This document shows positions 21,271 through 46,360 of a stretch of 46,360 nt of DNA, piece by piece (within the stretch, counting starts at the first letter, position 1; each line of letters starts with the position of its first letter). The translations under genes and the position numbers were made by a program. The DNA comes from Anaerolineae bacterium (GTDB lineage Bacteria; Chloroflexota; Anaerolineae; Aggregatilineales; Phototrophicaceae), in assembly GCA_034435595.1 (NCBI GenBank), contig DAOTXA010000300.1, positions 1 to 46,360 of the forward strand. Direction: 5' to 3'. Below the pieces are notes generated by a model. That model saw nothing but the letters and a program-made list of their open reading frames with translations. It was not told where the DNA came from and ran no database searches.

Positions 21271-21422
21271 CGCAGTTCCCTCTCCTAAAACTGATTCGGT
21301 AGACGCAACAATAATAGCGAATGTCCTCAAATTCTTGTAATGTTAACAATGGTAGCAATCGTGGCATCAATTCGTAAGACTTGAAAAAGCATTGGCCTCT
21401 GATATTGTAGACAAGCTGGGAG

Positions 21423-27884: not shown

Positions 27885-27892
27885 AGCGAGCG

Positions 27893-28900
27893 ATGAATCT
27901 GGAATCGAATTATCTTGGTTTGAAACTGCGGTCGCCGTTGGTTTGCTCGGCATCGCCGCTGACGGAAGATGTGGAGAATCTACGTAAGATGGAAGATGCG
28001 GGCGCAGGGGCGATCGTCTTAAGCTCGCTCTTTGAGGAGCAAATTAAAGAGGAGCGTTTGCGCCTGAATGAAAGTATGCTCGAAGGTACAGAGAGCTTCG
28101 CCGAAGCGTTGTCTTACTTCCCTGAACCGGAGTCGTATCATAAAGGGACGGATGACTATTTGGATCGGATTCGCAAAGCGAAACGAGCAGTGGATATACC
28201 AGTCATCGCCAGTTTGAATGGCGATTCTATCGGTGGTTGGACCGACTTTGCATCGCAGATGGAACAGGCTGGGGCCGATGCGCTAGAACTCAATGTGTAT
28301 TATATTCCTACAGATATGGAACTCAGTGGTGCAGAGGTTGAGCAAACCTATATCGATATTCTAAAAGCAGTGAAAGGGGCGATTAGCATTCCTGTGGCGG
28401 TCAAGGTTAGCCCGTTCTTTAGTAGCACGGCTAACATGCTTAAGCAACTTGACGATGCTGGTGCAGATGGCCTGGTATTGTTCAATCGCTTCTATCAGCC
28501 GGATATTGATCTGGAAACCCTGGAGATCGTGCCGAATGTTTTACTCAGTACGCCCGCGGCGTTGCGATTACCATTGCGGTGGATTGCTATCCTTTATGGG
28601 CGTCTTCAAGCAGACCTTGCTGCAACAAGCGGGGTTCATGCTGGGGAGGATGCTATCAAAGTCATTATGGCTGGGGCAAAAGTCGCTATGATGACATCTG
28701 CATTGCTACGTCACGGCATCGAACATCTGCGTGTGATTGAGAATGGTGTGGTCGAGTGGATGCAGCAGCATGAATACGAGTCGATTGAACAGATGCGCGG
28801 CAGCATGAGCCAGATGCATTCAGAAGACCCCTCAGCTTTTGAGCGTGCGCAGTATCGTCGTGCTATCACGACGTTCCGCCATAAAGCTCCTCGTCTCTAG
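27893..28900 (+). CDS. Dihydroorotate dehydrogenase-like protein (non-canonical PyrD paralog)
   Basis: Class-1 DHOD-like TIM barrel (LKLRSPLVCSASPLT, IPVIASLNG, ADALELN, IPVAVKVSP, DGLVLFNR, AATSGVHAGEDAIKVIMAGAKVAMMTSALL). The catalytic LSCPN loop reads VYYIP instead. It starts 8 nt after nifJ. Confidence 0.85.
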   Translation: MNLESNYLGLKLRSPLVCSASPLTEDVENLRKMEDAGAGAIVLSSLFEEQIKEERLRLNESMLEGTESFAEALSYFPEPESYHKGTDDYLDRIRKAKRAVDIPVIASLNGDSIGGWTDFASQMEQAGADALELNVYYIPTDMELSGAEVEQTYIDILKAVKGAISIPVAVKVSPFFSSTANMLKQLDDAGADGLVLFNRFYQPDIDLETLEIVPNVLLSTPAALRLPLRWIAILYGRLQADLAATSGVHAGEDAIKVIMAGAKVAMMTSALLRHGIEHLRVIENGVVEWMQQHEYESIEQMRGSMSQMHSEDPSAFERAQYRRAITTFRHKAPRL

Positions 28901-30463: not shown

Positions 30464-31252
30464 ATGGGTGTTCAAAGGACGATCAAAATGCAAAAAACCG
30501 ACCTCAAAACGAAGAACATCCTCTCTGATGAGAAAAAATCGAAGGCGCAAAAATATCAAGAACTCATCATTGGTAAAACGGGATGGGGGAGCCTGATCAA
30601 ATACGAGTTAATCATGCTGATTTGCAGCACACTACCCGGTGTCTTGGGTTTGTTTCTTCGTAGCAAACTGTATCCGATGTTACTTGGTAGCTGCGGCAAG
30701 GGTGTCGTATTTGGTTCAAATGTCGTGTTGCGTCATCCTCACAAAATTCATGTTGGTGATGACGTGGTAATTGATGACAACTGTCTGCTAGATGCGAAAG
30801 GCGTAAGCAACTCAGGCATCAAACTTGGCAACGGTGTGTTCATCGGTCGAAATTCGATTCTCAGTTGTAAGGATGGAGACATCGTACTCGAAGAGAGCGT
30901 GAATATGGGCTTTAATTGTGAGATTTTCTCGGCAAGCGAAGTTGTCGTGGGGCGTAAGACCATGATTGCCGCATATTGCTACCTGATCGCTGGTAATTAT
31001 GATACAACTGCCGGAATCCCATTTGCTGACCAGGATGGTTTTGGGTCTGGTGTAGGCGTCCACATTGGCGAATACGCCTGGTTAGCTGCCGATGTCAAGG
31101 TGCTTGACGAAGTAACCGTTGGTGAGCATACGGTTGTTGGTGCCGGAGCCGTCGTGAATCGATCATTGCCCCCGAATAGTCTGGCAGCCGGCATCCCTGC
31201 GAAAGTGATCCGTGAACGCCAGTCTACCCACTCTGAAAAGTCCGAAGCCTAG
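30464..31252 (+). CDS. Left-handed beta-helix (hexapeptide repeat) acyl/acetyltransferase
   Basis: Hexapeptide-type repeats (IHVGDDVVIDDNCLL, GIKLGNGVFIGRNSIL, VHIGEYAWLAADVKVLDEVTVGEHTVVGAGAVV). There is an N-terminal hydrophobic segment. The alternative ATG at 30488 has a better RBS (AAGGA). Confidence 0.8.
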   Translation: MGVQRTIKMQKTDLKTKNILSDEKKSKAQKYQELIIGKTGWGSLIKYELIMLICSTLPGVLGLFLRSKLYPMLLGSCGKGVVFGSNVVLRHPHKIHVGDDVVIDDNCLLDAKGVSNSGIKLGNGVFIGRNSILSCKDGDIVLEESVNMGFNCEIFSASEVVVGRKTMIAAYCYLIAGNYDTTAGIPFADQDGFGSGVGVHIGEYAWLAADVKVLDEVTVGEHTVVGAGAVVNRSLPPNSLAAGIPAKVIRERQSTHSEKSEA

Positions 31253-31278
31253 CCTCGCTGAGTTCAGGAGTATTCTGT

Positions 31279-32340
31279 ATGTCTGTCAACGAAACGCAAC
31301 AATCTGCCAAAGAGAAGAATAGACTTCGGCAATTTGCCTTCACCGTAGTAAAAGTCGTGATTTCGGCAGGGCTGATTTGGTTCATCTTGCGAGATACCAG
31401 TGTTGAGGAAGTGTGGAACGCGATCCAGATGGCAAATCCCTGGCTGCTGGCGTTGGCGTTCTCATTGCATTTCATCGGGTTCCTTGTCAGCGCAATTCGT
31501 TGGAAAGGATTGCTTCGCGCTCAGGGTGTAGATGCGACAATCCCGTTCTTGTTCAATTCTTATGTTGTCAGTGCATTTTTCAACAATTTGCTACCTTCCA
31601 CAATAGGTGGTGATGCAGTCCGTGCATATGACTCGTGGCGGCTTGGGCAAAGTAAATCCGATGCAGTCGCAGTCGTGTTTGTGGATCGTTTCCTCGGCAT
31701 TCTGGTGCTGATGGCTTTCGCACTCGTAGCCGTGCTGTTTTCGAATACCATTACGGAAGATGCGCCTTCGCTATATCTCTGGGTTGTTGTTGGATCGGTT
31801 GGTGTCGTTATCATCTCGTGGATTATGTTCATTCCTTCGCCACGGTTGCCACGATTGATTGAGGCTTTACCATTGCCTGGAAAAATCAAGGACAAACTCG
31901 TAACGATTGTGCGTGCATTCCTTTCTTTTCAGGGGAAGAAGCGTGTTCTTGCCGAGGCGATGTTCTGGTCTGTGGCGCTACAAGCCAACGTAGTCTTGCA
32001 TTATTGGCTGATTTCTGAGGCCATGGGGCTAAACGTGCCCTGGTACAATTTTTTCTTGATTGTTCCGCTGGCGACATTCGTCATGATGATCCCGATTTCA
32101 ATCAATGGTTTGGGCCTTCGTGAGACGGTATTCGCCTTTTTCTTCGCGCCTTTCGGCGTCGCAAACTCTGCTGCTGTAGGGTTCTCATGGATTGTGTATG
32201 GCATGGTGGTGCTACTGGGCGTGATCGGCGGAGTCATCTATGCGACACGCCGGGAGACACGCCTCGAAATACCTGCCGAAGCACCGCCCGACACTGCTTC
32301 TATTCGATCTGATGGTGTGGTTAGTGAATCTGTTCATTAG
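31279..32340 (+). CDS. Flippase-like UPF0104 / lysylphosphatidylglycerol-synthase-TM-region family membrane protein
   Basis: Polytopic membrane protein with the family hallmark IRWKGLL.......FFNNLLPSTIGGDAVRAY. An AGGAG RBS is present. Confidence 0.7.
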   Translation: MSVNETQQSAKEKNRLRQFAFTVVKVVISAGLIWFILRDTSVEEVWNAIQMANPWLLALAFSLHFIGFLVSAIRWKGLLRAQGVDATIPFLFNSYVVSAFFNNLLPSTIGGDAVRAYDSWRLGQSKSDAVAVVFVDRFLGILVLMAFALVAVLFSNTITEDAPSLYLWVVVGSVGVVIISWIMFIPSPRLPRLIEALPLPGKIKDKLVTIVRAFLSFQGKKRVLAEAMFWSVALQANVVLHYWLISEAMGLNVPWYNFFLIVPLATFVMMIPISINGLGLRETVFAFFFAPFGVANSAAVGFSWIVYGMVVLLGVIGGVIYATRRETRLEIPAEAPPDTASIRSDGVVSESVH

Positions 32341-32364
32341 GAATTTTGGGAGACAGTAACGATT

Positions 32365-32913
32365 ATGCCTTCACCTATTGCTCATGCTGCCATGGGACTT
32401 GCAATTTACGAAGTAGCTCGGCATCATATGGCTGATAGCGACGAGTCTCAACGCATTGGACCTATCTCAGGGCTGATGGCGGCCACAATTGGATTTTCAC
32501 TTCTGCCAGATGTTGATGTCGTTCCAGCGATATTGACCGGTAACTTTGCCGCATTCCACAATAACTTTACACATAGCTTGTTTTTCGGTTTGCTGATGGC
32601 ACTGTGCTTTGCGGCTACGATGTTCTTCTTGGATCGTAAGAATGTGTGGCGGTGGCTAACAGTGGCACTTGGTTGTTACTGGGTTCATGTGGGCATGGAC
32701 TTTTTGACGCCCGGACGAGGTGTCATGGTTCTATGGCCGTTTATTCCTGAGAGGCTTGAACCATCGTTCTTTGCCTTTTACGGCGTTCATTGGTCTGAGC
32801 CGCTGACAAGCACAAGGCATTTGCTTACACTTGTTACAGAGGGACTTTTTGTTTCACTTGTCGGGGCCAGTTCGATGGCATATCGTCGTATACTTTCAAA
32901 TACTACGACCTGA
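32365..32913 (+). CDS. YdjM-like membrane-bound metal-dependent hydrolase (DUF457-type)
   Basis: The 182 aa protein has 4-5 TM helices, an N-terminal PSPIAHAAMG, LLPDVDV and the His cluster FHNNFTHSLFF. Confidence 0.55.
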   Translation: MPSPIAHAAMGLAIYEVARHHMADSDESQRIGPISGLMAATIGFSLLPDVDVVPAILTGNFAAFHNNFTHSLFFGLLMALCFAATMFFLDRKNVWRWLTVALGCYWVHVGMDFLTPGRGVMVLWPFIPERLEPSFFAFYGVHWSEPLTSTRHLLTLVTEGLFVSLVGASSMAYRRILSNTTT

Positions 32914-32917
32914 CAAA

Positions 32918-33676
32918 ATGCTCTACTTCACCGATGAGGAGGTTATTCCTGTGGTGGCATTCCCTGAAACCGCAGATATTGAAACGTCATCCGACGATTA
33001 CGCGACTCGATTCGCTGGTGACATAGGCAAATGGTTCCTGAAGTTACAGGAAGATGCAACACTTAAAATGCTCAAGCCTTATCCGGGTGCTACGATACTT
33101 GACGTTGGAGGCGGTCACGGACAAACCACAGAAGCTTTGGTGAAGGCCGGATACAAAGTGACTGTGCTGGGTAGCGATGAGAGTTGCAGGTCGCGCATTC
33201 AATCTTTTGTGGATATGGGACAGGTAGACTTTAAAGTCGGTAATGTGATTGATCTGCCTTATGAAGCACGTTCGTTTGACGTTGTGTTAAGCTATCGTTT
33301 AGTCCCGCATGTTGAACGGTGGGAAGAACTCCTCACAGATTTCACTCGCGTTGCTGACAAAGCGGTTATCGTTGATTTCCCTGAAAGCTTGAGCTTTAAT
33401 GCCATCACGCCACTGTTGTTTGGCTTCAAGAAGAAACTTGAAGGGAACACGCGAGAATACACGTTATTCCGCCGTAGTCAGCTGATGGATGTATACGAGC
33501 ACAACGGCTTTCAGTATTCGGCACGTATCCCTGAATTTTTCTTGCCGATGGTATTGCATCGTAAGCTGAAGAATGTGCGCATTTCTAGCTTCATGGAATC
33601 AATCTCCCGCCTGACTGGATTAACCCGATTGTTTGGGTCTCCAGTGATATTGAAGGTAACTCGGAAGGACGGATAG
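32918..33676 (+). CDS. Class I SAM-dependent methyltransferase
   Basis: The start is trimmed to ATG 32918, 4 nt after the upstream stop. Motif I is ILDVGGGHGQTT, post-I is VTVLGSDE and motif II/III is FDVVLSYRLVPHV. Confidence 0.75.
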   Translation: MLYFTDEEVIPVVAFPETADIETSSDDYATRFAGDIGKWFLKLQEDATLKMLKPYPGATILDVGGGHGQTTEALVKAGYKVTVLGSDESCRSRIQSFVDMGQVDFKVGNVIDLPYEARSFDVVLSYRLVPHVERWEELLTDFTRVADKAVIVDFPESLSFNAITPLLFGFKKKLEGNTREYTLFRRSQLMDVYEHNGFQYSARIPEFFLPMVLHRKLKNVRISSFMESISRLTGLTRLFGSPVILKVTRKDG

Positions 33677-33679
33677 CTC

Positions 33680-34888
33680 GTGCGTATTCTCTTTTTGTCT
33701 CCTCAACCACTCTATCAAGATCGTGGTTCCTCGATTGCTAATAAACTGATTATCGAAGTCCTCTCTGAGCGTGGCGAGGAAACAGATGTAATTACGTATG
33801 CCGAAGGCAAGACGGTTGAGTATCCACATATTACGCTGTTGCGAACACCGGACTACAACTTTTTGCGTGGCATTCGTCCCGGTTTCAGTGCAAAAAAGAT
33901 CGTCTGCGACATCTTCATGTTTTTCAAGGCAGTTCGCTTGTTGGTGCGTGGTGAACGGTACGATGTCGTCCATGCTGTCGAGGAATCTGCCTTTATCGCG
34001 TTATTGTTCAAGTGGTTCTTGCGGATTCCGTACATATATGACATGGATTCGTCACTCGCTCAGCAAATGGTAGAGAAGTATCCATCGCTCAAGTTTGCGT
34101 CAACAGCACTCAATTTTTTTGAGGGGGTCGCAATTCGCAATGCGACAGCGGTTATCGTTGTATGTGATGCGTTAGGGGATATTGCGAAAGAACATAATCC
34201 CAAGAAGCTGATTACCTTGCGTGACGTTCCATTGTTAGATGATGATCCTGTGGAGATCACCGAGGATTTGCGGTCTGATCTCGGTATCGACGGTCCCATA
34301 TTGATGTACGTCGGCAATCTTGAGAGTTATCAGGGGATCGATTTGCTGGTTGAAAGCACCGCAAAGGCGACACAGGAAACGGTCACACCATTCCACGTTG
34401 TTGTTGTAGGTGGGGCAGATGCTGATATTGAGAAATATCGCGCAATGTCGGTGGATAAAGGCATTAGTGATCGTATTCATTTCATTGGCCCACGTCCCAT
34501 CGGCGACTTAAAGATGTACCTTTCGCAGGCCGATATTCTGCTATCCCCCCGCACCAAAGGTAACAATACGCCGATGAAGATTTACTCGTACCTTTATAGC
34601 GGAAAGCCGATTGTCGCGACAGATTTGTGGACACATACGCAAGTTTTGACGACAGACGTTTCAGTATTGGCAGACCCTGACACCAATGCATATGCTGGTG
34701 GAATGGTAAAATTGGTAGAGGATGCGGCCTTACGAGACAGACTTGGTGGCGCGGGTAAGCAACTCATTGAAGATCATTACAGCTATGAGGTTTTTCACGA
34801 AACCCTTACCGGGTTGTTGGATTGGTTGAACAGCGAATTCGATTCGTCATCAAAAGGTGTCATCGCTACATCTGCCGGATCATCATAA
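33680..34888 (+). CDS. Glycosyltransferase family 4
   Basis: GTG start with a GGAAGGACGG RBS. The N-terminus is MRILFLSPQPLYQDRGSS and the C-terminal GT-B signature is DILLSPRTKGNNTPMKIYSYLYSGKPIVATD. Confidence 0.85.
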   Translation: MRILFLSPQPLYQDRGSSIANKLIIEVLSERGEETDVITYAEGKTVEYPHITLLRTPDYNFLRGIRPGFSAKKIVCDIFMFFKAVRLLVRGERYDVVHAVEESAFIALLFKWFLRIPYIYDMDSSLAQQMVEKYPSLKFASTALNFFEGVAIRNATAVIVVCDALGDIAKEHNPKKLITLRDVPLLDDDPVEITEDLRSDLGIDGPILMYVGNLESYQGIDLLVESTAKATQETVTPFHVVVVGGADADIEKYRAMSVDKGISDRIHFIGPRPIGDLKMYLSQADILLSPRTKGNNTPMKIYSYLYSGKPIVATDLWTHTQVLTTDVSVLADPDTNAYAGGMVKLVEDAALRDRLGGAGKQLIEDHYSYEVFHETLTGLLDWLNSEFDSSSKGVIATSAGSS

Positions 34889-34915
34889 AACGTCAAGAAA
34901 AGACAGGAGAACGCA

Positions 34916-36571
34916 ATGAAGCGCGATCTTGAACGGATATCCGGCGAGATGTACGATCTTGTTATCATTGGGGCCGGAATTTATGGCGCAACACTGCTGT
35001 GGGAAGCGACCTTGCGCGGGCTGAAAGCCATTGTTGTTGAAAAGGGTGATTTCGGTTCAGGCACATCTGCCAACAGCCTAAAAACCATTCATGGTGGCGT
35101 GCGTTACTTGCAGCACGCCGACATTCAGCGTATGCGCGAGTCAATGCGCGAGCGACGAAACCTGATGCGGATTACTCCGCACCTTGTTCACCCTCTCCCT
35201 GTGCTGATTCCTACCTACGGGCATGGGATGAAAGGGCGGGAGATTATGGCTGCTGCGATGATCGTGAATGATGTTTTGAGCATGGACCGTAATGTGCTGG
35301 ACGATCCACAAAAGCGGATCCCGAATGGGACGACTGTATCTCCTGCCAAAACACTTGACATTGCCCCAGGTATCAAAGAAGAAGGATTGACTGGTGGAGC
35401 AGTCCTGTACGATGCTCAAGTTTATAATTCGGAACGTCACATTCTCGCGTTCATTCGGTCCGCTGTCGAACGCGGATCGGATGCTGTAAATTATGCGCCT
35501 GTTATAGGGTTTCTTCGTGATGGAGATACAGTCTTCGGTGTTAAGTGCGAAGATCAGATTTCTGGTAGCGAAGTTGAGATTCGCGGGAAGTATGTAATCA
35601 ATACTGCCGGTCCTTGGATCAGCCATGTATTGGATATGGACGGTGGGGCAAATACGCCAGATAAGCTTAAACTTTCAATGGCGATGAATATCATCGTTCC
35701 CAATCTATTTGACACGTATGCGGTGGGAATTTCATCCACTCGAGTGTATCGCGATACCGATTCGCTGCTTGATCGTGGTAGCCGATTACTGTTCTTTTCG
35801 CCATGGCGCGGTAAAACAATGGTTGGTACCGAGTATGAAGCGTATGAAGGCCATCCTGACGAGTTTCGACTTACCGAACAGAAAATCGTTAATTTCGTAG
35901 AAGAGGTCAATCACGCATACCCTGCGGCTAATATCACACGCGATGACGTGAGTTTCGTCCATGCTGGTTTGTTACCGATGGATGGTTTGGATGAAACGAC
36001 AGGAGATGTTCGACTCGCCAAGCACTACGAAATCCGTGACCATCGTGAACAGGGTGTACAAGGGATTGCGTCTGTTGTTGGTGTGAAATACACCACGGCT
36101 CGCGATGTAGCCGAGCGTGTTATGAACTGGGTTTTTGACCGCATTTGGGAAAAAACTGCGCCTCGTTCCACATCGGCAATTACACCTTTATGGGGTGGCA
36201 ATATAACGCGATTTAATGATTTTCTGAATCGAGAGATTCGCCAGCAACCATGTGGCCTGGGCGAGGAGGCAGTACGTTGCCTCGTATACAACTATGGTTC
36301 TGCATATTCCAATGTGACCCGTTATTTGGATGGCCCTGTTGACGAGGGGGATCGACTTGCGCTGGCTGCTGCCGAAACACGTCATGCTGTACACGACGAG
36401 ATGGCGCAACATCTTGAGGACGTGATCCTGAGACGTACCGAATTGGGTTCTGCTGGATACCCCGGTGATGATGTACTTGCCGAATGCGCGAGAACAATGG
36501 CCGAAGAACTTAACTGGGATGATGTCCGCAAGCAGCAGGAAATCGACAAGACGAATGCCCGCTTCTACTAA
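34916..36571 (+). CDS. GlpD-like FAD-dependent oxidoreductase (DAO family plus C-terminal helical domain)
   Basis: YDLVIIGAGIYGATLLWEATLRGLKAIVVEKGDFGSGTSANSLKTIHGGVRYLQ closely mirrors the glycerol-3-phosphate dehydrogenase N-terminus. The 551 aa length includes a GlpD-type C-terminal domain. Confidence 0.8.
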   Translation: MKRDLERISGEMYDLVIIGAGIYGATLLWEATLRGLKAIVVEKGDFGSGTSANSLKTIHGGVRYLQHADIQRMRESMRERRNLMRITPHLVHPLPVLIPTYGHGMKGREIMAAAMIVNDVLSMDRNVLDDPQKRIPNGTTVSPAKTLDIAPGIKEEGLTGGAVLYDAQVYNSERHILAFIRSAVERGSDAVNYAPVIGFLRDGDTVFGVKCEDQISGSEVEIRGKYVINTAGPWISHVLDMDGGANTPDKLKLSMAMNIIVPNLFDTYAVGISSTRVYRDTDSLLDRGSRLLFFSPWRGKTMVGTEYEAYEGHPDEFRLTEQKIVNFVEEVNHAYPAANITRDDVSFVHAGLLPMDGLDETTGDVRLAKHYEIRDHREQGVQGIASVVGVKYTTARDVAERVMNWVFDRIWEKTAPRSTSAITPLWGGNITRFNDFLNREIRQQPCGLGEEAVRCLVYNYGSAYSNVTRYLDGPVDEGDRLALAAAETRHAVHDEMAQHLEDVILRRTELGSAGYPGDDVLAECARTMAEELNWDDVRKQQEIDKTNARFY

Positions 36572-36590
36572 TTACGATAGGAAAGATTAA

Positions 36591-37424
36591 ATGACGGTAG
36601 AGCAAGCAATCTCCAGTGAACAGGAACAAGACGAACGGATTAGTTTTCCGTTAAAGCTATTTGGAAAGTCTGTACTCAAGCAGCGCAAGTATAAGGAACT
36701 CAGTGCAATGCTTGGCCCAGTTGGTGACCGGACATGTATTGACATCGGTTCCGATAACGGTGTGATTAGCTATCTGTTTCGCCAGCAGGGTGGTACATGG
36801 AAGAGTGCTGATCTCGATGATCATGCTGTGCATGCTATTCGGTCAATGGTGGGAAGTGATGTTTATCAAATTGATGGCGGAAAAACTCCCTTTGCCGATA
36901 ATGAGTTCGACGCGGTAGTGATTGTGGATTTTCTGGAGCACATCTCGGATGATAAAGGTTTTATGCAAGAGATGAAGCGAATCCTAAAACCAGGCGGCAC
37001 CGTGATTATGAACGTGCCGCACCTCAAAAATAGCCTGTTAAGGCGATTCCGCCTCCTTATCGGTCAGACGGATGAGAAACATGGTCATTTGCGCCCCGGT
37101 TATACGCCTGCGATGTTGAAGGACCTTGCTGGTGCCGACTTCACCATTCAACGTCATCATACTTACTCTAAATTTTTCTCCGAGTTCATCGACACTATGA
37201 TTGTGTTTGCTGTCTCGGTGCTGAAATCGCTGAAAGGTGAAAAGGCTGACTCGCAAAAGGGTTTAGTGGTCACAGGTGATGATCTGAGCGCGAATAAGTC
37301 GATGTTCAAGATTTATTCGTTGATTTTCCCAGTAGTTAAAGTGTTCTCCTTGCTGGATAATCTGCTGTTTTTCCGCAAAGGGTACATGTTGATTGCCAGC
37401 GCAACTAACAACAAACAGGAGTGA
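36591..37424 (+). CDS. Class I SAM-dependent methyltransferase (Methyltransf_11-like)
   Basis: Motif I is CIDIGSDNGVIS, followed by FDAVVIVDFLEHISDD and ILKPGGTVIMNVP. A hydrophobic C-terminal tail is present. Confidence 0.8.
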   Translation: MTVEQAISSEQEQDERISFPLKLFGKSVLKQRKYKELSAMLGPVGDRTCIDIGSDNGVISYLFRQQGGTWKSADLDDHAVHAIRSMVGSDVYQIDGGKTPFADNEFDAVVIVDFLEHISDDKGFMQEMKRILKPGGTVIMNVPHLKNSLLRRFRLLIGQTDEKHGHLRPGYTPAMLKDLAGADFTIQRHHTYSKFFSEFIDTMIVFAVSVLKSLKGEKADSQKGLVVTGDDLSANKSMFKIYSLIFPVVKVFSLLDNLLFFRKGYMLIASATNNKQE

Positions 37425-37432
37425 GCGCAGCG

Positions 37433-38428
37433 ATGCACGACAAGAATGACAAGATTCTCGTCACGGGCGGAACCGGATATACTGGCAGCCATCTGGTGAG
37501 ACGGCTGGTCAACGATGGCTACGATGTACGTACATTTGTGAGGAATCCTGATAAATTTCCGCTGCTCAAAGATATCAACGTTGAAATCGCTACTGGCGAT
37601 CTGCGGAATAAGGACGATGTCAACAAGGCAATGGATGGTGTAAATGTTGTATATCATATCGCCGCTTTGTTTCGTGCAGAGAATGTCTCACGTGAGGACA
37701 TGTTCGATATTAACGCGGGTGGTGCGGAAAATATGCTTCAAGCTGCTGAAAAGCAAGGGGTGAAGCGTTTTGTACATTGCAGTACGATCGGTGTACATGG
37801 CGATGTCAAGAATCCACCTGCAGATGAGGAATCCCCATACAATCCTGGTGATTATTATCAGGAATCGAAGCTTGAAGGTGAACTAATCGCCCAGCGTTTC
37901 ATGAAGGCAGGCAACATCCCAATTAGCATCTATCGTCCTGCTGGAATCTATGGGCCAGAAGAGAAGCGTTTTCTGAAGCTCATTAAATCGATCCGCAATC
38001 GTACATTTGTGATGATCGGTTCCGGCGAAATTCTATATCATATGGTCTACATTGACGATCTGGTAGATGGCATCATTCTATGCGGTACGCAGGATGAGGC
38101 AGTTGGTGAAATCTTTATCCTCGCAGGGGATGATAACTTGACGTTGAACGATCTCGTACACTTGATTGCCGACATTCAGAATGTGCCGGCACCGAAATTG
38201 AGGGTCCCGTTTGCGCCGGTCTATGCTGCCGGATATGCTGCAGAGGTTTTGTTCAAACCGTTTGGTGTCCAACCTCCGATTTATCGTCGGCGTGTCGATT
38301 TCTTCCGCAAAACGCGCAGCTTCGACATTAGCAAGGCAAAGGATGTGCTCGGCTACAAGCCAAAAGTCTCGTTACGCGAGGGGTTGCAGAATACGATTGC
38401 CTGGTATGAGACGGAAGGGCTTTTCTAA
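37433..38428 (+). CDS. NAD-dependent epimerase/dehydratase (extended SDR)
   Basis: ILVTGGTGYTGSHLV Rossmann motif and catalytic YxxxK in YYQESK. ATG 37433 follows AGGAG. The track ORF starts at a GTG (37421) that overlaps the upstream stop. Confidence 0.9.
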   Translation: MHDKNDKILVTGGTGYTGSHLVRRLVNDGYDVRTFVRNPDKFPLLKDINVEIATGDLRNKDDVNKAMDGVNVVYHIAALFRAENVSREDMFDINAGGAENMLQAAEKQGVKRFVHCSTIGVHGDVKNPPADEESPYNPGDYYQESKLEGELIAQRFMKAGNIPISIYRPAGIYGPEEKRFLKLIKSIRNRTFVMIGSGEILYHMVYIDDLVDGIILCGTQDEAVGEIFILAGDDNLTLNDLVHLIADIQNVPAPKLRVPFAPVYAAGYAAEVLFKPFGVQPPIYRRRVDFFRKTRSFDISKAKDVLGYKPKVSLREGLQNTIAWYETEGLF

Positions 38429-38583: not shown

Positions 38584-40281
38584 GTGTTTTCAATGAAATC
38601 TAGACTACAGCGGCTTCTGCCGGATTCATCGCATAACTCGCAAATGCAAAGGGCTTTGATCAAGTTTCCAGAAATCAGCATCATGTGGCCAGATGGTCGT
38701 CCTGAAGCAAAGCAGATCGTTCGCAAGGAAACTGGCTGGGATATTGATTTGCGGCTTGACGATTTGGTGCAATCCATGACACTCGACCGGCGATATAGTG
38801 CATATATTCATCAAATCTTGCTATCGTTGACGACAGATACCGGGGTTATTGAATGGCGACAGGCAATTCTGGAAGACTTTCTCTCCAATCCTACATTGAC
38901 CGATATGTTTTCCGAGTTGTTGCCGCGAATGCAGGGCCTGGGACAGCGGTCTACTGCCTTACTCGGGCGACGTGAGCGGGGTCTTTTGCTTGAGGCTTCA
39001 GATCGGTTGGCAGAGCTTGATCTTTATACGGAAACAGTTGTTTCTATGCTTTCTGCACTTAAGCAGGCACATCTGAGTTCTCCTGGTTTGATCCAATTGT
39101 TGCGTGAACTGGAAATGCTGCAAAATAGCGAGAGTTTTCGAAATCTGCAAGATCAGTTACCTGAGATGCGTGCACCGTTCAGCAAGATTGCTAGCTTAAC
39201 AGTTGGCATCAATCTTGATGCGCAGTTGCGACCGCGGTCTGCAGTATTGATGGCAGTGAATGATGTCGAAATTGGTGAACCTGCCTCATTCTTGGAAAGA
39301 CTGGTTGGGATACGTGATTCTGAGGTCGATGAATCTGGTATTGCGCCGATGCATCATGTTCCGGGTGAGAAAAATCAGCGAATTTTGTCGCCTTTGTTTC
39401 AAGACCTCAATCGACTGATGAATCAGATTGCGCAACCTGTTACGCGTGAGTTGCAGCGCTACACGTGGCTGTCTAGCGAGCCACTTATTGAATTAGAATT
39501 TGAGTTGGCTTTTTTTGTCGGGGCAGCGCGAATGGTTGAGCGTCTGCGAGATAGAGGGGTTTCGTTTTGTCGTCCTGAAATTCGTCCGTCTGCCGCTCGT
39601 GAGATGGTGATAGAGGACCTGACAAACATTGCGCTCGCGTTGTCAGAAGAAAAGCATTTGCCGGTTACAAGTGATGTGAGGTTTGATGAGTCTGGTCGCA
39701 TAGGCATTTTGACTGGGCCAAATAGTGGTGGTAAGACGACATACTTGCAGGCTGTTGGCCTTACTCAAGCGATGTTTCAAGCCGGGCTAAATGTACCTGC
39801 AAAGTTGGCTCTGATGAGTCCAGTACGCACTATCTTAACTCATTTTCCGGCGCTGGAAACAAGAAGAGACGGGCGCTTGGCTGAAGAGGCGAGTCGGCTA
39901 CGTCGTGTATTTACCTTTGCGGATGCACATTCACTCATCTTGTTAAACGAGACGTTTTCCAGTACCTCAGCAAGTGAGGCGATCTATCTGGCGCGTGATA
40001 TTTTGTCGGCGATGCGCATAATTGGTTTGCGTGCACTTTATGCTACTCATTTTAGCGAACTTGTCGAGCACATTGATCAGATTGAGGAGAATGTTTCTGG
40101 TAGCAGCCGCATCTTTAGCCTTGTTGCCGGAATTGATACTGATGAAAAAGGAGAATCCGTTGCTACTTATAGGGTAGTTCGGGGAATGCCGCTGGGGCGA
40201 AGCTATGCTCGTCAGATTGCACTGCGCTACGGAATTAGTCTGGATCAGATTATGTCGAATCAAGTATATAATAATTCGTAG
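38584..40281 (+). CDS. MutS-related ABC-type ATPase (domain V only; no mismatch-binding or Smr domain recognisable)
   Basis: Walker A is ILTGPNSGGKTTYLQAVGL and Walker B region is SLILLNETFSSTS. The N-terminus resembles short MutS paralogs (SIMWPD....DIDLRLDDLVQ..). The start is uncertain among GTG 38584, ATG 38593 and ATG 38644. Confidence 0.7.
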   Translation: MFSMKSRLQRLLPDSSHNSQMQRALIKFPEISIMWPDGRPEAKQIVRKETGWDIDLRLDDLVQSMTLDRRYSAYIHQILLSLTTDTGVIEWRQAILEDFLSNPTLTDMFSELLPRMQGLGQRSTALLGRRERGLLLEASDRLAELDLYTETVVSMLSALKQAHLSSPGLIQLLRELEMLQNSESFRNLQDQLPEMRAPFSKIASLTVGINLDAQLRPRSAVLMAVNDVEIGEPASFLERLVGIRDSEVDESGIAPMHHVPGEKNQRILSPLFQDLNRLMNQIAQPVTRELQRYTWLSSEPLIELEFELAFFVGAARMVERLRDRGVSFCRPEIRPSAAREMVIEDLTNIALALSEEKHLPVTSDVRFDESGRIGILTGPNSGGKTTYLQAVGLTQAMFQAGLNVPAKLALMSPVRTILTHFPALETRRDGRLAEEASRLRRVFTFADAHSLILLNETFSSTSASEAIYLARDILSAMRIIGLRALYATHFSELVEHIDQIEENVSGSSRIFSLVAGIDTDEKGESVATYRVVRGMPLGRSYARQIALRYGISLDQIMSNQVYNNS

Positions 40282-40469: not shown

Positions 40470-42113
40470 GTGGCTGGCCTTGACGTTGAAACCCGCGACA
40501 TGATTCTAGATACATTGAGCAGCTATGCGGAAGATCGGCTCACAGTAGACTATCTTCTAGAACTTGATCATAAGGATGAGTTCCCGACGGATGTTCTTCG
40601 TGAACTCTATGATCCTGAAACGTTTGGTCTGCACCTGTTGTTTATTCCCGAAGATTATGGCGGGTTAGATGGCGGCGCGTATGATATTTATCGTGTTTCC
40701 GAGATTATGGCGGGTATCGATCTCGGTATCGGCACTGGTGTTTTGGCTACTTTCCTTGGGCTTGACCCCATTACCGTCGGCGCGACAGATGAACAGAAAG
40801 AATATTGGATGTCTCGCGTGGCTGAAGAGGGTATGTTAATTGCCTATGGTGCCACCGAACCGCAGGCGGGTAGTGATCTTGCATCGTTGTCTACAAAAGC
40901 GGTACCTGTCGAAGAAGACGGTAAGATCGTCGGCTATAAGATTACAGGTCGTAAGCAATGGATCAGTAACGGTGGGGTTGCCGACTTATACACAATTCTT
41001 GCGAATGCTCCCGGCGGTCCATCATGGTTTATCGTGGAACGGGAAAAAGTTGATGGATTTACAACTGGTAAACCGGAAGATAAACATGGTATTCGTGCAA
41101 GCAATACCTCTGCACTTTTTCTTGAAGATGTTTACGTTCCTGTAGATCAACTTGTTGGCTTGAAAGAAGGAAACGGGCTAGCAGAAGCCCAGGCTGTTTT
41201 CGGGTATACCCGCTTGATGGTTGGTACATTCGGATTGGGGGCTGGATGGGAGGCGTTGCGCCGCGCTATTCGCTATTCGCAGGAGCGCATTCAAGCAGGT
41301 GCGCCACTTAGCGAAAAACAGGGCTATACTCACAAGTTGATTGTACCTAATGCTGTTCGGCTTGAGGCCTGTCGCTCGTATATCGAATGGGTCGCTGAAC
41401 GTCTTGATTTTGGTGAGGATAACCTTGCAACAGAGGGTGCGGTTGCTAAATATATGGCGACCGAAGGCGGTAACAAAGCGGCTGAAGACGCGATACAGGC
41501 GTTGGGAGGCTATGGTTATACGAAAGAGTATATGGTCGAGAAGATTAAACGTGATGTTCGCATTACAACCATTTATGAAGGTACATCAGAAATCATGGAA
41601 TGGACGATTGCGCGTGATCGTTGGCAAAGTCATTTAAAGTCGCGTGGTGCTTTTTATCGCGATTGGGCATCTCGACTTGATGCAATTCACTCAAAGCAAC
41701 CTGCTAATGGCGCAGATATTGCCGCTTTGGGATTGCGTGCCCTCGCAGTCGTACTTGACCGTTGCCGCGAGGATCGTCTCACGCGACAGCAGCACATTCT
41801 ATTCCGCATAGGTGAGTTAGTTGCTTTTGCAGAATTAGCGGCGACTTATGCCGAACGTGTGGTTGACAAAGCGACGCAGGCGTCACCGTTCAGTTTGGAA
41901 ACGCAGCAGGCGATGTGCCGCGTATTTGCCCGCGAAGCTGCGCTGAAGGTTGCAGTTGATGGCTTAAGCTGGACCAATGGGGCCGGACAAACAGATCCCA
42001 ATCTGGCGGACTCTTTGAATCTACCAGCGATCTACGCAGCTCAAAAGGGTGGCATTGAGGACATGGACACGGTCGCGGTAGCATTGGTATCTGCATATCC
42101 GGCTGCGCAATAG
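40470..42113 (+). CDS. Acyl-CoA dehydrogenase, long form with a roughly 155 aa C-terminal extension
   Basis: GTG start after AAGGGGGG. The ACAD core shows [28 protein letters not shown] and catalytic-Glu region [11 protein letters not shown]. Additional helical sequence follows the core. Confidence 0.9.
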
Positions 42114-42128
42114 CGACTGAATCTATTT

Positions 42129-42170
42129 GCAAACTGCAATGAGCAGCTAATTTATCTCATTGCGGTTTGC
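42129..42170 (+). other. 15 bp stem hairpin between the ACAD and megasynthase genes
   Basis: GCAAACTGCAATGAG-12 nt loop-CTCATTGCGGTTTGC has one G-U pair and no T-tract. It lies 67 nt upstream of the megasynthase ATG. Confidence 0.5.
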
Positions 42171-42236
42171 ATTACTCACGTAATTCTACTATTCTCTCAT
42201 GTGTATTTAATTTAGGGGAACTGGAGAGGCGAGCAA

Positions 42237-45200
42237 ATGGATTCTTCGGCAGATCGTGCGATCGCCATTGTAGGCGTTGGTGCCATTCTCCCTGATGCTC
42301 TGACTGCGCCGGATTTCTGGCAGAATATTATCAATAAGCGATATAGCATTTCTGATGTCCCTGACGGTCGATGGAATGTCTCTGACTACTTTAATCCTGA
42401 TATGACCGTTTCCGACAAGACGTATAGCAAGATTGGCGGTTGGGTAAAAGGCTTCGAATTTGACTGGCGGCGGTTTCGCATTCCACCCAAGGTTGCTGCC
42501 GCGATGGACCAGGGGCAACAATGGGCGCTTACAATTGCTGCTGAGGCCTTAGACGATTATGGCTACCCTGCACGTGCGCTTAATACTGAACGCACTGCTG
42601 TGATTCTAGGTACGGCAATGGGTGGCGAACTGCACTATGAAACGGCTCTTCGTGTCTCATTCCCGGAATTTGCTCGTTTGCTCAAGGAAACACCAGAATT
42701 TGCTGCGCTTTCTGTTGAAGCACGTGCTGCGCTGATTGATCATTGGCACGCAGAGGTCACGCGAGCCTTTCCACCTGTCACCGAAGACTCGATGCCGGGT
42801 GAACTGCCGAATGTGATGTCAGGCCGTGTGGCGAATGTGCTAAATCTTCGCGGCCCGAATTTTATCACTGATGCGGCGTGTGCATCAAGTTTTGCAGCGC
42901 TGAATTCTGCGGTGGAGATGCTCACCGAACATCACGTAGACGCTGTCTTGACGGGTGGTGTTGATCGAAATATGGGTGTCACTACCTTCGTGAAGTTCTG
43001 CAAGATTGGTGCGTTAAGCGCCACAGGTAGCCGTCCGTTTGGCGAAGGTGCCGATGGCTTTGTGATGGGAGAAGGATCGGGTGCGTTTTTGCTCAAACGC
43101 TTGTCCGATGCAGAGCGTGCTGGAGATAAGATTTATGCTGTTATTCGAGGTGTAGGTGGCTCAAGTGATGGTAAAGGCAAAGGTATTACTGCCCCCAATC
43201 CAGTAGGGCAGCAATTATCGATTCGTCGCGCCTGGGAAAACGCGATGTTGGAACCAGCGACAGCAACATTGATCGAAGCTCATGGTACCAGTACGCGTGT
43301 TGGCGATGTCGTAGAAGTTGAAAGCCTATCCACTGTGTTCGGTAACGCACAGCGCAATAGTATTGCGCTTGGGTCTGCGAAGAGCAATATTGGACATTTG
43401 AAAGCGGGGGCAGGCGCAGCCGGTTTGATGAAGGCAACTATGGCATTACATCACAAGACGCTACCTCCTACCCTCAATGCTGAACGTCCGAATCCCAATA
43501 TTGATTTCGAACAATCGCCATTTTACCTGAATACAGAGCCTCGCGAATGGGTGAGATCAAATGGAACGCCCCGAAGGGCCGGCGTCAGTGCCTACGGTTT
43601 CGGTGGGACCAACTTTCACATCGTTTTGGAAGAATATGTTCCTGGTTCATTGACCAGCAAAGTCAGGTCTTTTCCAACGGCAGTAGCTAACCGTGAGGCG
43701 GAGTCTGGTCCATCTGTTACTCGCTCCATCATGCCAGTTCGTGGTTTGCTGGCGATCGGCGCAAATACGCCGCAGGCGCTGAAGAATAAGTTGGACGACG
43801 TAAATGCTCGTGTTGAAGCTGGCTGGACCCCGCCTGCTGCCTTACCAGGTGAAGCTGACATCAAGGCGCGAGAGCGTATCGTTATCGATTTTGGAGATCA
43901 CGCCGAGCTTGTTGATCGTGTCCATAAAGCACAAAAAGCAATGGGTTTCGACACGCTTCAGGCCTGGCGTGCCCTAGAGGCACAGGGTATCTTCCGTGGG
44001 AGTGGTACCCGCTCCGGCAAGACCGCCTTTTTGTTCCCAGGGCAGGGTAGTCAATATCTGGGCATGGGTCGGCAGCTTGCAGCGGTTTCTCCGATTGTGC
44101 AGCAAGTATTTGATGATGCTGATGCCGTGATGGAGCCGATTCTTGGTAGACCGCTAACCGATTATATCTTCGTTGACGATCCAGATGATCCCGTCGCACA
44201 AATGACGCTGATGCAGACTGAAATTACTCAGCCAGCGATGTTGACACTGGATATTGCCATCTATCGACTTCTCCAATCTTACGGCTTTAGACCAGATTTA
44301 GTGATGGGCCACTCTCTGGGCGAGTACGCGGCATTGATTGTTTCTGGCATTATGTCGTTCAAAGATGCTCTAGAAGCAGCGGCAGCACGTGGTAACGAGA
44401 TGGCCCGTGTTAGTGTCGAAGACAATGGCTGGATGGCGGCAGTACTTGCACCATTAGATGCCGTGCAAGAGACACTAAAAGAAGTTGACGGTTATGTGGT
44501 TCCAGCTAATATCAATAGCCGCAGTCAGTGTGTAATTGGCGGAGCCAGCAAAGCCGTGGAGCAGGCGATTGCCCTTTTTGAAGAAAAAGACTATCGTGCG
44601 ATCCAATTGCCGGTCAGTCATGCATTCCACACGGAAATCGTCGCTCCCGCCAGTGCGCCGTTGCGCAATGTTTTAGATCGCCTAGATATTCGCCCGCCGA
44701 CCATTCCTTTGGTTGCCAATGTAACCGGTGATTTATATCCCACAGACGTTACAGCAATTAAAGATTTGCTACAAAAACAAATTGCTTCGCCAGTGCAATG
44801 GGTGAAAGGATTGGAAACACTCTTCCACGAAGGAGTGCGTATGTTCGTGGAGGTCGGTCCAAAACGAGCACTGCGTGGATTTGTCGCTGATGTGTTCAAG
44901 GGTAACGATGAAGTGTTAGCCCTTATGACCAATCATCCTAAAACTGGAGAATTGTCGGCATTTAATCACGCAATTGCGGGTTTATATGCCCATGGATACT
45001 ATGCCGCAGTCGAGAAAAAACCGAGTGTAACCGCATCAATTGAGCTTCCGCAACCGAAGTTAAATCCAGAAAATGAGGCCACAATGACGGCTCCAGCCGA
45101 ACCTCCCACCAATGCTTCGCTCGAAGCGCTGACGCAGATGTTGACGCAGGCTCTTGGCCGTACTGTAGTACAGCAAGGGGCCGCGACTAATGTCTATGAT

Positions 45201-46360
45201 CGCAACGATGTGCCGCTGGGTTCGATTGTTGTGTCGGGGACTGGTCTTGGTCTGCCGGGTGCCGAAAAATCGGTGATGGATCCTGATAATGCGCAGCGCA
45301 TCTTACGCGGGGAGCAGTTTGTCGATTTGATCCCCGAACGTTTCCGCAGGAAGATTCTTGACAAGCGCATTACACGTCTCGTCAAGTCAGCGGATGGGAG
45401 TGGCGAATTTGTCACAATATCTGATCCAGATGCAGTAATTCGTCTGGCCGGTCGTTCTGGTATGTTCGACCTCCATGACGAATATGGTGTGCCCACCAAG
45501 CTGATTGAGGCACTAGACCAGACCACGCAGCTTGCTATTGCCGCAGGTCTTGACGCGCTACATGAAGCCGGTATCCCGCTTGTACAGACTTACCGAACGA
45601 CGACGACCGGTAAGCAGTTGCCGGATCGCTGGATGCTGCCAGAATCATTGCGTGATGAAACCGGTGTTATCTTTGGAAGCGCCTTCCCCGGTGGGGACCG
45701 TTTTGCCGATGAACTAAGCAGATATCATACATTCCAGAATCGACTTGATCAGCTCAGGTTGCTAGAAGATCTTCGAAAGACAGTGAGTGATGGTGTAACC
45801 CTTACGGAGATCAATCGACGTGAGGCGGAACTCCGTGAGGAATTAGAGCGCGAACCTTACTCCTTTGATCGTCGCTTTATCTTCCGCATTCTTGCAATGG
45901 GACATAGTCAATTCGCCGAGTACATAGGTGCGCGAGGTCCCAATACACATGTCAACGCCGCATGTGCAAGTACTACACAGGGAATTGCCCTTGCCGAGGA
46001 TTGGATTCGTAGCGGACGTTGCCGTCGGGTCATCGTTCTCGGTGCAGATGATGTGACCAGCGATCACTTGATGGAATGGGTTGGGGCTGGCTTCCTGGCA
46101 ACGGGGGCGGCTGCGACTGATGACCGTGTCGAGGAGGCGGCCCTGCCGTTTGATCGTCGCCGTCATGGGACCCTGTTGGGTATGGGAGCCTGTGCGCTGG
46201 TTATAGAAAGCGAGGATGCTGTTCGCGAACGTGGAATGCGTGCCATCGTTGAAGTGTTGAGCAGCGAAACGCGTAACAGCGCATATCATGGTACAAGGCT
46301 AGATGTGAATCATATCTCCATGGTAATGAGTAATCTTGTTACTTCCGCAGAGCGTAGATT
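42237..46360 (+). CDS. PUFA-synthase/type I PKS-like megasynthase, N-terminal 1374 aa (3' truncated by window edge); domain order KS-AT-KS
   Basis: This ORF is not in the supplied track because it has no stop. I translated it by hand from ATG 42237 (RBS GGAGAGG 7 nt upstream) to the last base and found no stop codon. Frame-checked motifs are KS1 Cys DAACASS (42879), His EAHGT (43281) and NIGHLK (43395). They continue with AT FPGQGSQ (44034), GHSLGEY (Ser 44313) and HAFH (44619), then KS2 NAACAST (Cys 45963). Confidence 0.9.
42252..43637 (+). other. Ketosynthase domain 1 (PfaA/HglE-like)
   Basis: Runs from [14 protein letters not shown] to [14 protein letters not shown], with a complete Cys-His-His triad. 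Confidence 0.85.
44019..44900 (+). other. Malonyl-CoA:ACP acyltransferase-type AT domain
   Basis: Motifs are [32 protein letters not shown] and VSHAFHT. The HAFH motif is the one usually associated with malonyl specificity. Confidence 0.85.
45222..46360 (+). other. Second ketosynthase-like domain with retained active-site Cys (truncated by window edge)
   Basis: Runs from [12 protein letters not shown] through [23 protein letters not shown] and VIVLGADD to [23 protein letters not shown]. The His residues would lie beyond the window. Confidence 0.75.

Follow-up and report, generated by a model that had tools for sequence, protein, structure and literature searches.

The closest described relatives of the gene presented here are the Type R clusters catalogued by Shulse and Allen (2011, PLoS One 6:e20146, PMC3098273), each built on a single pfaA homolog with the domain order ketosynthase (KS), malonyl-CoA:acyl carrier protein (ACP) transacylase (MAT), chain-length factor (CLF), three to six ACP domains and ketoreductase (KR), followed by a gene for a phosphopantetheinyl transferase (PPTase). 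The catalogued hosts are Ca. Koribacter, Ca. Solibacter, Elusimicrobium and Roseiflexus, the product is uncharacterised, and in Koribacter an acetyl-CoA carboxylase (ACC) gene sits between the pfaA homolog and the PPTase gene (PMC3098273). In the literature we searched, the domain string KS-MAT-CLF-ACP-KR is found in this 2011 paper alone. Here we analyse the last 4.1 kb of a contig from an Anaerolineae bacterium (Chloroflexota; GenBank assembly GCA_034435595.1, contig DAOTXA010000300.1), where a PfaA-like megasynthase gene begins; "the window" below means the whole stretch of DNA that was analysed, which is the entire 46360-bp source contig. Domain order and homology make this truncated gene a new member of Type R, a family that has been catalogued but whose function is uncharacterised. 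Its interest lies less in the order KS-acyltransferase (AT)-KS than in three things that are new relative to the 2011 description: a second KS that is probably active, an apparent exchange of enoyl reductase (ER) for acyl-CoA dehydrogenase (ACAD), and carrier domains built around threonine.

A first-pass annotation of this DNA had reported a megasynthase open reading frame (ORF) that was missing from the program-made list of ORFs, open from an ATG to the final base, with the rest of its domain string lying past the window. All of this holds. Frame 3 runs from 42237 to 46360 through 1374 codons without a stop, so the interruption that the annotation feared is not seen; over the same interval the two alternative frames are broken by 73 and 89 stops. 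The ORF went unlisted because the list leaves out ORFs that reach past the end of the source, and the gene is cut at the contig end, inside its second KS domain (KS2). Its recognisable parts are as follows.

42223-42229, plus strand: Shine-Dalgarno-like GGAGAGG, read from the sequence, 7 nt 5' of the ATG at 42237
42237-46360, plus strand: 5' part of the Type R PfaA-like synthase gene (open frame; TIGR02813 the best NCBIfam model; colinear homologs)
42255-43481, plus strand: KS1, a PfaA-type ketosynthase (Pfam, motifs, PDB sequence matches to KS-AT didomains of polyketide synthases (PKSs) and to 6riw)
43488-43802, plus strand: KS-AT linker domain, KAsynt_C_assoc (Pfam PF16197, residues 418-522, E = 2e-9)
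44028-44900, plus strand: malonyl-CoA:ACP transacylase domain (Acyl_transf_1, residues 598-888, E = 3e-46; TIGR00128 fabD, 234 bits)
44901-45248, plus strand: post-AT segment and inter-domain linker, without a carrier-protein motif (regular expressions, composition)
45249-46360, plus strand: N-terminal ~370 residues of KS2, divergent FabF-like with extra insertions (faint thiolase-fold Pfam matches; homologs)

Domains were called with Pfam and NCBIfam profiles and with motif regular expressions on the translation of 42237-46360. KS1 matches ketoacyl-synt N and C over residues 7-415 (E = 2e-76 and 9e-37) and carries the motifs DAAC215ASS, EAH349GTST and SNIGH387, with Cys215 encoded at 42879-42881, His349 at 43281-43283 and His387 at 43395-43397; it is thus the complete Cys-His-His ketosynthase that had been proposed. 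The transferase was likewise rightly read as malonyl-type, since besides its Acyl_transf_1 match it has both GHS693LGEY (Ser codon 44313-44315) and H795AFH (44619-44630), and HAFH is the malonyl signature in PKSs. Of the description of the linker that follows, as Pro/Ala-rich and devoid of a phosphopantetheine motif, the second half stands: no carrier-protein motif was found between AT and KS2 by regular expression on the window protein, in which the sole match to G.D[ST] is a GFDT at residue 570, within the KS-AT linker. The enrichment in Pro and Ala is mild, at 23% over residues ~905-1004 versus 17% for the whole protein. A second KS-like domain that keeps its active-site Cys had also been claimed, and Cys1243 is indeed present, with the qualification that only the first ~370 residues of the domain lie in the window and its two His fall past the contig end.

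The best curated model for the window protein is TIGR02813 (omega_3_PfaA), at 675.6 bits against a cut-off of 1010.1, which the fragment misses because it is truncated. A full-length homolog from Ca. Oscillochloris fontis (L044, 3167 aa) passes with 1180.8 bits. Protein-level homolog listings held fragments of at most 725 aa, from frameshifted or short contigs, and full ORFs were taken from genome loci; with 35 such full-length homologs (2612-3220 aa) the window protein is colinear over their first ~1400 residues at 54-70% identity. Its N-terminus aligns with homolog residues 1-30, and it aligns end to end with the Roseiflexus loci L024 and L035. By Pfam, L044 consists of KS, AT, KS2, six PP-binding domains, KR and PS-DH, the KR with a Ser/Tyr/Asn motif. 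All 35 homologs have between two and six carrier domains, and the dehydratase (DH) motif HxxxGxxxxP is matched by exact regular expression in 22 of them; from these motifs, KR and DH are probably active in the homologs.

The part of the synthase beyond the contig end is expected, from these relatives, to comprise some 1250-1850 more codons that encode the remainder of KS2, two to six carrier domains, KR and DH. Inside KS2 our assembly breaks at residue 1374 and the independent one of the closest relative (L083, contig end 16070; ACAD 84% identical) at residue 1437, and both breakpoints precede the repetitive carrier region, which is the more usual break site in short-read assemblies. Such breaks within the gene, in the window and in L083, are what could be cited for the idea that the ORF is an assembly artefact, a chimera or a pseudogene joining two unrelated KS genes. 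We regard this as extremely improbable: the stop-free frame, against the many stops of its two neighbours, argues otherwise, as does the same domain order, unbroken in dozens of independent assemblies that include long-read metagenome-assembled contigs and a closed chromosome.

The family is large. With the KS2 part as query and one genome per GTDB species as target, confirmed relatives came from at least 589 species-level genomes, in which the frame typically spans 2600-3200 codons and starts ~3 kb 5' of KS2. Among the matches listed, the relatives in Chloroflexota come from Roseiflexus, Oscillochloris, Kouleothrix, Ca. Amarolinea, Caldilineales, Anaerolineae, Promineifilaceae and Ardenticatenaceae, and those elsewhere from Acidobacteriota, Actinomycetes, Binatia and delta-proteobacterial/myxobacterial lineages. 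When 1.84 billion cluster representatives were searched exhaustively with HMMER, 536 clusters at 50% identity were returned (E <= 1e-30), with KS2 at residues ~1000-1450 in most of their full-length members.

How does the locus compare with Type R? The N-terminal order KS-MAT-second KS-like domain is encoded by 42237-46360 (Pfam, NCBIfam, motifs), the proximal KS is of PfaA type with TIGR02813 as the best model, and the relatives include Roseiflexus and many Acidobacteriota loci. The neighbourhoods of the relatives agree as well. Of 82 related loci, 38 have a PPTase gene downstream, and many have carboxyltransferase and biotin carboxylase genes or a multidomain ACC. In Chloroflexota the PPTase gene is directly 3' of the synthase gene and is followed by genes for carboxyltransferase, biotin carboxylase and biotin carboxyl carrier protein (BCCP). 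In the Acidobacteriota/Binatia loci (L065-L082) the synthase gene is directly followed by a gene for a eukaryote-like single-chain ACC of 1866 aa, with biotin carboxylase (BC), BCCP, ACC_central and carboxyltransferase (CT) parts.

These correspondences bear on the suggestion, made at first pass, that a KS-AT-KS N-terminus fits neither the PfaA/HglE nor the PfaC layout and may mark an uncharacterised class of synthase. The misfit is real, as the order differs from all three, and a PfaA-like megasynthase without an assigned product it is; the layout itself was catalogued in 2011 as Type R and occurs in hundreds of genomes. That this order belongs to an already characterised synthase is not what we find either: none of the literature searched assigns it a product. 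Could it still be a previously unrecognised class? No curated family model names the family, no product is known, and NCBI calls the relatives [quoted passage not shown] or "hypothetical". Since architecture, taxa and the neighbouring PPTase and ACC genes were all published under Type R, and given the family's spread, we consider this improbable, and as a claim of a new architecture it is refuted by the 2011 description.

The identity of the second condensing domain can be taken further. In the window KS2 gives faint thiolase-fold Pfam matches around residues 1234-1277 and has the motif NAAC1243AST (Cys1243 codon 45963-45965); its pair of His is invisible there because the window ends after ~370 KS2 residues. 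In the 35 full-length homologs the four catalytic positions are occupied by Cys (35/35), His (34/35), Lys (35/35) and His (35/35), and the HMMER alignment of the L044 KS2 to Thermus thermophilus FabF (1j3n) matches NAAC-AST to the Cys, SH-ETFTP to the first His, and NTK-GFTGH to the Lys and the second His. An AlphaFold2 (AF2) model of the homolog P0002 (mean pLDDT 76.8) finds its best match in free-standing FabF (TM 0.84 normalised to the target, ~20% identity) and has extra insertions, among them a long helical hairpin that immediately precedes the active-site region.

CLF domains have a KS fold without the active-site Cys, and Cys1243 is present here. KS2 might nevertheless be a CLF-like or priming module that pairs with KS1 and decarboxylates malonyl-carrier or gates chain length, rather than an elongating KS. 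That is how the 2011 paper (PMC3098273) labels the second domain, and the high divergence of KS2, its faint Pfam matches in the window and the large insertions of the homologs, with the hairpin preceding the Cys, would suit such a role. The retention of all four catalytic residues, each in 34 or 35 of the 35 homologs and aligned to those of FabF, is hard to reconcile with it, as are the free-standing FabF enzymes among the top structural matches and the absence of the PfaC KS-CLF structure 6riw from the 60 best PDB sequence matches of KS2, although KS1 does match 6riw. We therefore hold a CLF-like or priming role to be possible but doubtful, and reject a PfaC-like CLF in particular on its catalytic residues and its best structural and sequence neighbours. 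From conserved residues, the Cys seen in the window and the other three in homologs, KS2 is a FabF-like KS with a full Cys/His/Lys/His set and not a classic CLF; together with the predicted FabF-like fold, this suggests that KS2 is probably active, and therefore that the family has two apparently competent condensing domains.

Directly 5' of the synthase gene, on the same strand and separated from it by a 123-nt spacer, lies a second gene.

40470-42113, plus strand: acyl-CoA dehydrogenase of VLCAD type, 547 aa (Pfam Acyl-CoA_dh N, M and C; motif; AF2 match)

The protein has the three ACAD domains, the canonical catalytic-Glu motif IYEGTSEI and an additional C-terminal helical domain or extension of ~165 aa, as expected of a VLCAD-type enzyme. 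Its AF2 model (pLDDT 80.6) has full-length matches in 2z1q, 3owa and human VLCAD (3b96), with TM 0.71-0.80 and 22-24% sequence identity. Orthologs of 51-79% identity stand directly 5' of the synthase gene on the same strand in 68 of the 82 related loci, with a median gap of 64 nt, and the remaining 14 loci are cut short upstream or have no ACAD match. Acidobacteriota and Binatia show a longer operon, in the order Fe-S/CCG oxidoreductase, EtfB, EtfA, ACAD, synthase and ACC (e.g. L068:1262-5164, L067:15530-21127). On this conservation of gene order, ACAD and synthase are a conserved two-gene core, and the upstream gene is not mentioned by Shulse and Allen (PMC3098273).

Why should an acyl-CoA dehydrogenase accompany a synthase? 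By Pfam, the full-length homolog L044 has no ER domain. Many of the more distant KS2-bearing proteins have an N-terminal extension of ~680 residues that holds a PfaD/NMO-type ER, as in P0365 (NMO-KS-AT-KS2-6xACP-KR-DH), and a metagenome scan with this ER region yielded 80 loci (L084-L163) in which the ER is immediately 5' of KS1, with KS2 visible within the fetched DNA in 42. The two arrangements never co-occur: the NMO-type ER was found in none of the 82 ACAD-type loci, and this ACAD in none of the 80 NMO-type loci, 69 of which have at least 1.8 kb of upstream DNA. A midpoint-rooted neighbour-joining tree built from KS2 groups the ACAD-type loci into a single clade that is nested within the ER-type ones. 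This suggests that ACAD displaced PfaD at the same genomic slot in one non-orthologous event. Because it fills the slot of the PfaD-type ER and the two are mutually exclusive, the ACAD probably supplies enoyl reduction, acting in trans as the candidate for the missing ER. As general background, menaquinol could plausibly, on thermodynamic grounds, reduce enoyl thioesters by way of electron transfer flavoprotein (ETF), and menaquinone is in use in the host phyla. Among the deeper relatives we also observed proteins with an extra KS-like domain between KS1 and AT (e.g. L091:13229-14083), others with a PPTase fused C-terminally (e.g. P0324) and a further ER-fused example (P0276).

Alternatively, the synthase may work without any ER, and the ACAD may oxidise acyl thioesters, either desaturating a primer or intermediate or belonging to beta-oxidation. 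In that case one would expect a polyene, or an otherwise unsaturated or hydroxylated chain, as with iterative PKSs that lack an ER, the enediyne PKSE being one example. The lack of an ER domain in L044 is what such a synthase would show; ACAD, ETF and Fe-S/CCG oxidoreductase, as ordered in the operon, make up a classical oxidative electron route; and in sequence the ACAD is nearest to ordinary MCAD, SCAD and VLCAD. Against this, deeper relatives hold a PfaD-type ER at the very position where the ACAD clade has lost it, which functional replacement explains more easily; tandem carriers and a dedicated ACC in the operon suggest bulk acyl-chain synthesis; and the close adjacency of ACAD and synthase genes across phyla argues against a chance beta-oxidation neighbour. 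We consider the ER-less alternative unlikely.

The carrier domains of the homologs, which in our gene would fall outside the window, depart from the textbook in another way. All 128 tandem carrier domains of the 35 full-length close homologs have the motif LG[IV]D-T-V (e.g. L044:12090-13800), and a canonical DS carrier was found in none of these homologs. In HMMER alignments to solved ACPs (PigH 5y08, 2lol, 2koo) the Thr falls exactly on the phosphopantetheine Ser. Among 50%-identity representatives, ER-fused or not, there are 176 matches with Thr versus 10 Ser-containing ones by regular expression, and a single representative, P0292, has Ser throughout its tandem motif (LGIDSV x4, LGVDSV x1). 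With Thr (or Ser) throughout, a hydroxyl residue is therefore conserved at the attachment position. The co-encoded PPTase is of Sfp/HetI type, and our searches found no literature on Thr-type carriers. A bolder reading, which we offer tentatively and hold to be less likely than not, is that the whole KS2-bearing superfamily is a self-contained machine resembling a type-I fatty acid synthase (FAS), which would carry phosphopantetheine on Thr by means of its own PPTase and, in the window's clade, would have replaced the PfaD-type ER by a VLCAD-type flavoprotein fed by ETF and ultimately by quinol. If this is true, either Thr-borne phosphopantetheine or an ACAD in place of an ER would be a new biochemical solution in FAS/PKS enzymology.

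We modestly favour the following overall reading: the 4.1 kb at the end of the window are the 5' part of the gene for a Type R PfaA-like iterative megasynthase with the full layout KS1-MAT-KS2-ACP(2-6)-KR-DH, which would use the ACAD in trans as its ER and make a long-chain secondary lipid. The MAT would load malonyl units onto the tandem carrier domains. KS1 and KS2 would both condense, given the Cys/His/His of KS1 and the Cys of KS2 in the window and the rest of the KS2 set in homologs, and might share the labour, with one initiating and the other elongating, or one serving short chains and the other long ones, much as PfaA-KS and PfaC-KS of polyunsaturated fatty acid (PUFA) synthases would, here fused in one polypeptide. 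The KR and the PKS-type DH, whose domains and motifs are seen in the homologs, would process every beta-keto group, and the VLCAD-type flavoprotein would carry out enoyl reduction with electrons from ETF, which in Acidobacteriota may be served by the operon-encoded EtfAB and Fe-S/CCG oxidoreductase. The product would be a mostly saturated acyl chain of a long-chain "secondary" lipid.

Several considerations weigh against this reading. ACADs are normally oxidative, and ACAD homologs in PKS and nonribosomal peptide synthetase pathways oxidise carrier-bound acyl groups; by analogy, the ACAD here could be a desaturase. The literature searched contains no report of an ACAD acting as an ER, nor a product, mutant, enzyme assay or enzymological study for any member of the family. 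The mutual exclusivity of ER and ACAD reflects what is apparently a single swap, seen in locus sets that were chosen by different queries and on a midpoint-rooted neighbour-joining tree. ETF genes are not adjacent to the synthase gene in the window or in most Chloroflexota loci, and neither a thioesterase nor an off-loading acyltransferase was identified. With Thr in place of the canonical Ser in the relatives' carriers, loading in the usual manner is not certain. Finally, ACP, KR, DH, PPTase and ACC lie outside the window and are attributed to this locus through relatives at 54-79% identity.

One further feature lies in the spacer that separates the two genes.

42128-42171, plus strand: inverted repeat of 16 nt (94% complementary) with a 12-nt loop (repeat search; RNA fold -32.7 kcal/mol, z = -3.1)

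The repeat is not conserved in the closest relative, L083. As a canonical intrinsic terminator it was rejected because a T-run is absent; it could form an RNA hairpin or serve as a protein-binding palindrome. No sigma-70-like promoter was found in the spacer.

Further upstream, 30464-38428 is a co-directional block shared with L083:1-7331; it is seen in this closest relative alone, and more distant loci are without it. It encodes a hexapeptide acyltransferase, an LPG_synthase_TM/flippase-like membrane protein, YdjM, two SAM methyltransferases, a GT4 glycosyltransferase, a glycerol-3-phosphate-dehydrogenase-like FAD enzyme and an NAD-dependent epimerase, and by this gene content may be a glycolipid or cell-envelope cluster beside the synthase. 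Between block and ACAD, 38584-40281 encodes a 565-aa protein with a MutS domain V ATPase alone (weak MutS2/KamC-like matches), and L083 has a two-component system on the opposite strand at this position. Elsewhere in the window, 24321-28900 encodes a pyruvate:ferredoxin oxidoreductase in a single chain of 1187 aa and, after it, a dihydroorotate-dehydrogenase-like protein; on the minus strand, 18871-21330 encodes an 818-aa protein that Pfam GHL5 ("hypothetical glycoside hydrolase 5") matches along its entire length (E = 6e-284).

In Chloroflexota and Acidobacteriota, major phyla of soil, mats and wastewater, few PfaA-like genes are as widespread as those of Type R synthases, which have had no lipid product assigned to them in the fifteen years since they were catalogued. 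An ACAD/ETF pair serving as ER and carriers charged on Thr, if confirmed, would extend the known chemistry of carrier-protein-dependent synthases and provide a handle on an abundant, uncharacterised lipid pathway.

Set beside Type R as published (PMC3098273), the family shares the PfaA-type KS, the MAT and the second KS-like domain and, in the relatives, tandem ACPs (two to six, against three to six in the paper), KR, a downstream PPTase gene and, in Acidobacteria, ACC; for the window itself the match concerns the KS-MAT-KS2 part. It differs in that the paper calls the second domain a CLF and leaves the C-terminal DH, the upstream ACAD and the Thr carriers unmentioned. KS1-MAT and, in the homologs, tandem ACPs-KR-DH are homologous to and colinear with PfaA (TIGR02813), whereas the family inserts an extra KS2 of ~700 aa between MAT and ACPs and has Thr rather than Ser carriers. 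A canonical PUFA synthase, with ACPs directly after KS-MAT and with PfaB, PfaC (KS-CLF-DH2) and PfaD, is thus not what we find, and no pfaB/C/D-like partner genes occur within 10 kb of the synthase gene in related loci. The HglE system (KS-AT-ACPn-KR with HglC KS-CLF-AT and HglD) likewise has a different order and has partners that are absent from the related loci.

With the KS-CLF didomain of PfaC/HglC (6riw) the family has in common a second condensing-type domain in one synthase system, probably with a division of labour over chain length; KS2, however, has retained all its catalytic residues, stands apart from KS1 with the AT in between and is nearer to FabF than to the KS or the CLF of PfaC, and the Type R family is without FabA-type DH/isomerase domains. 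The enediyne PKSE (KS-AT-ACP-KR-DH-PPTase) resembles the family in being one iterative polypeptide that is related to PfaA, lacks an ER and is associated with a PPTase, but has one KS, one ACP, a polyene product and no ACAD partner. VLCAD-type ACADs (3b96, 2z1q, 3owa) share with the window's enzyme the fold, including the C-terminal helical domain, and the catalytic Glu motif, whereas ours is genomically locked to a biosynthetic megasynthase and its proposed direction is reductive. PfaD, the NMO/FMN-type trans ER of PUFA synthases, corresponds to it in functional slot: deeper relatives have a PfaD-like domain fused or adjacent 5' of KS1, and the window's clade appears to fill that slot with an unrelated FAD enzyme of the ACAD family.

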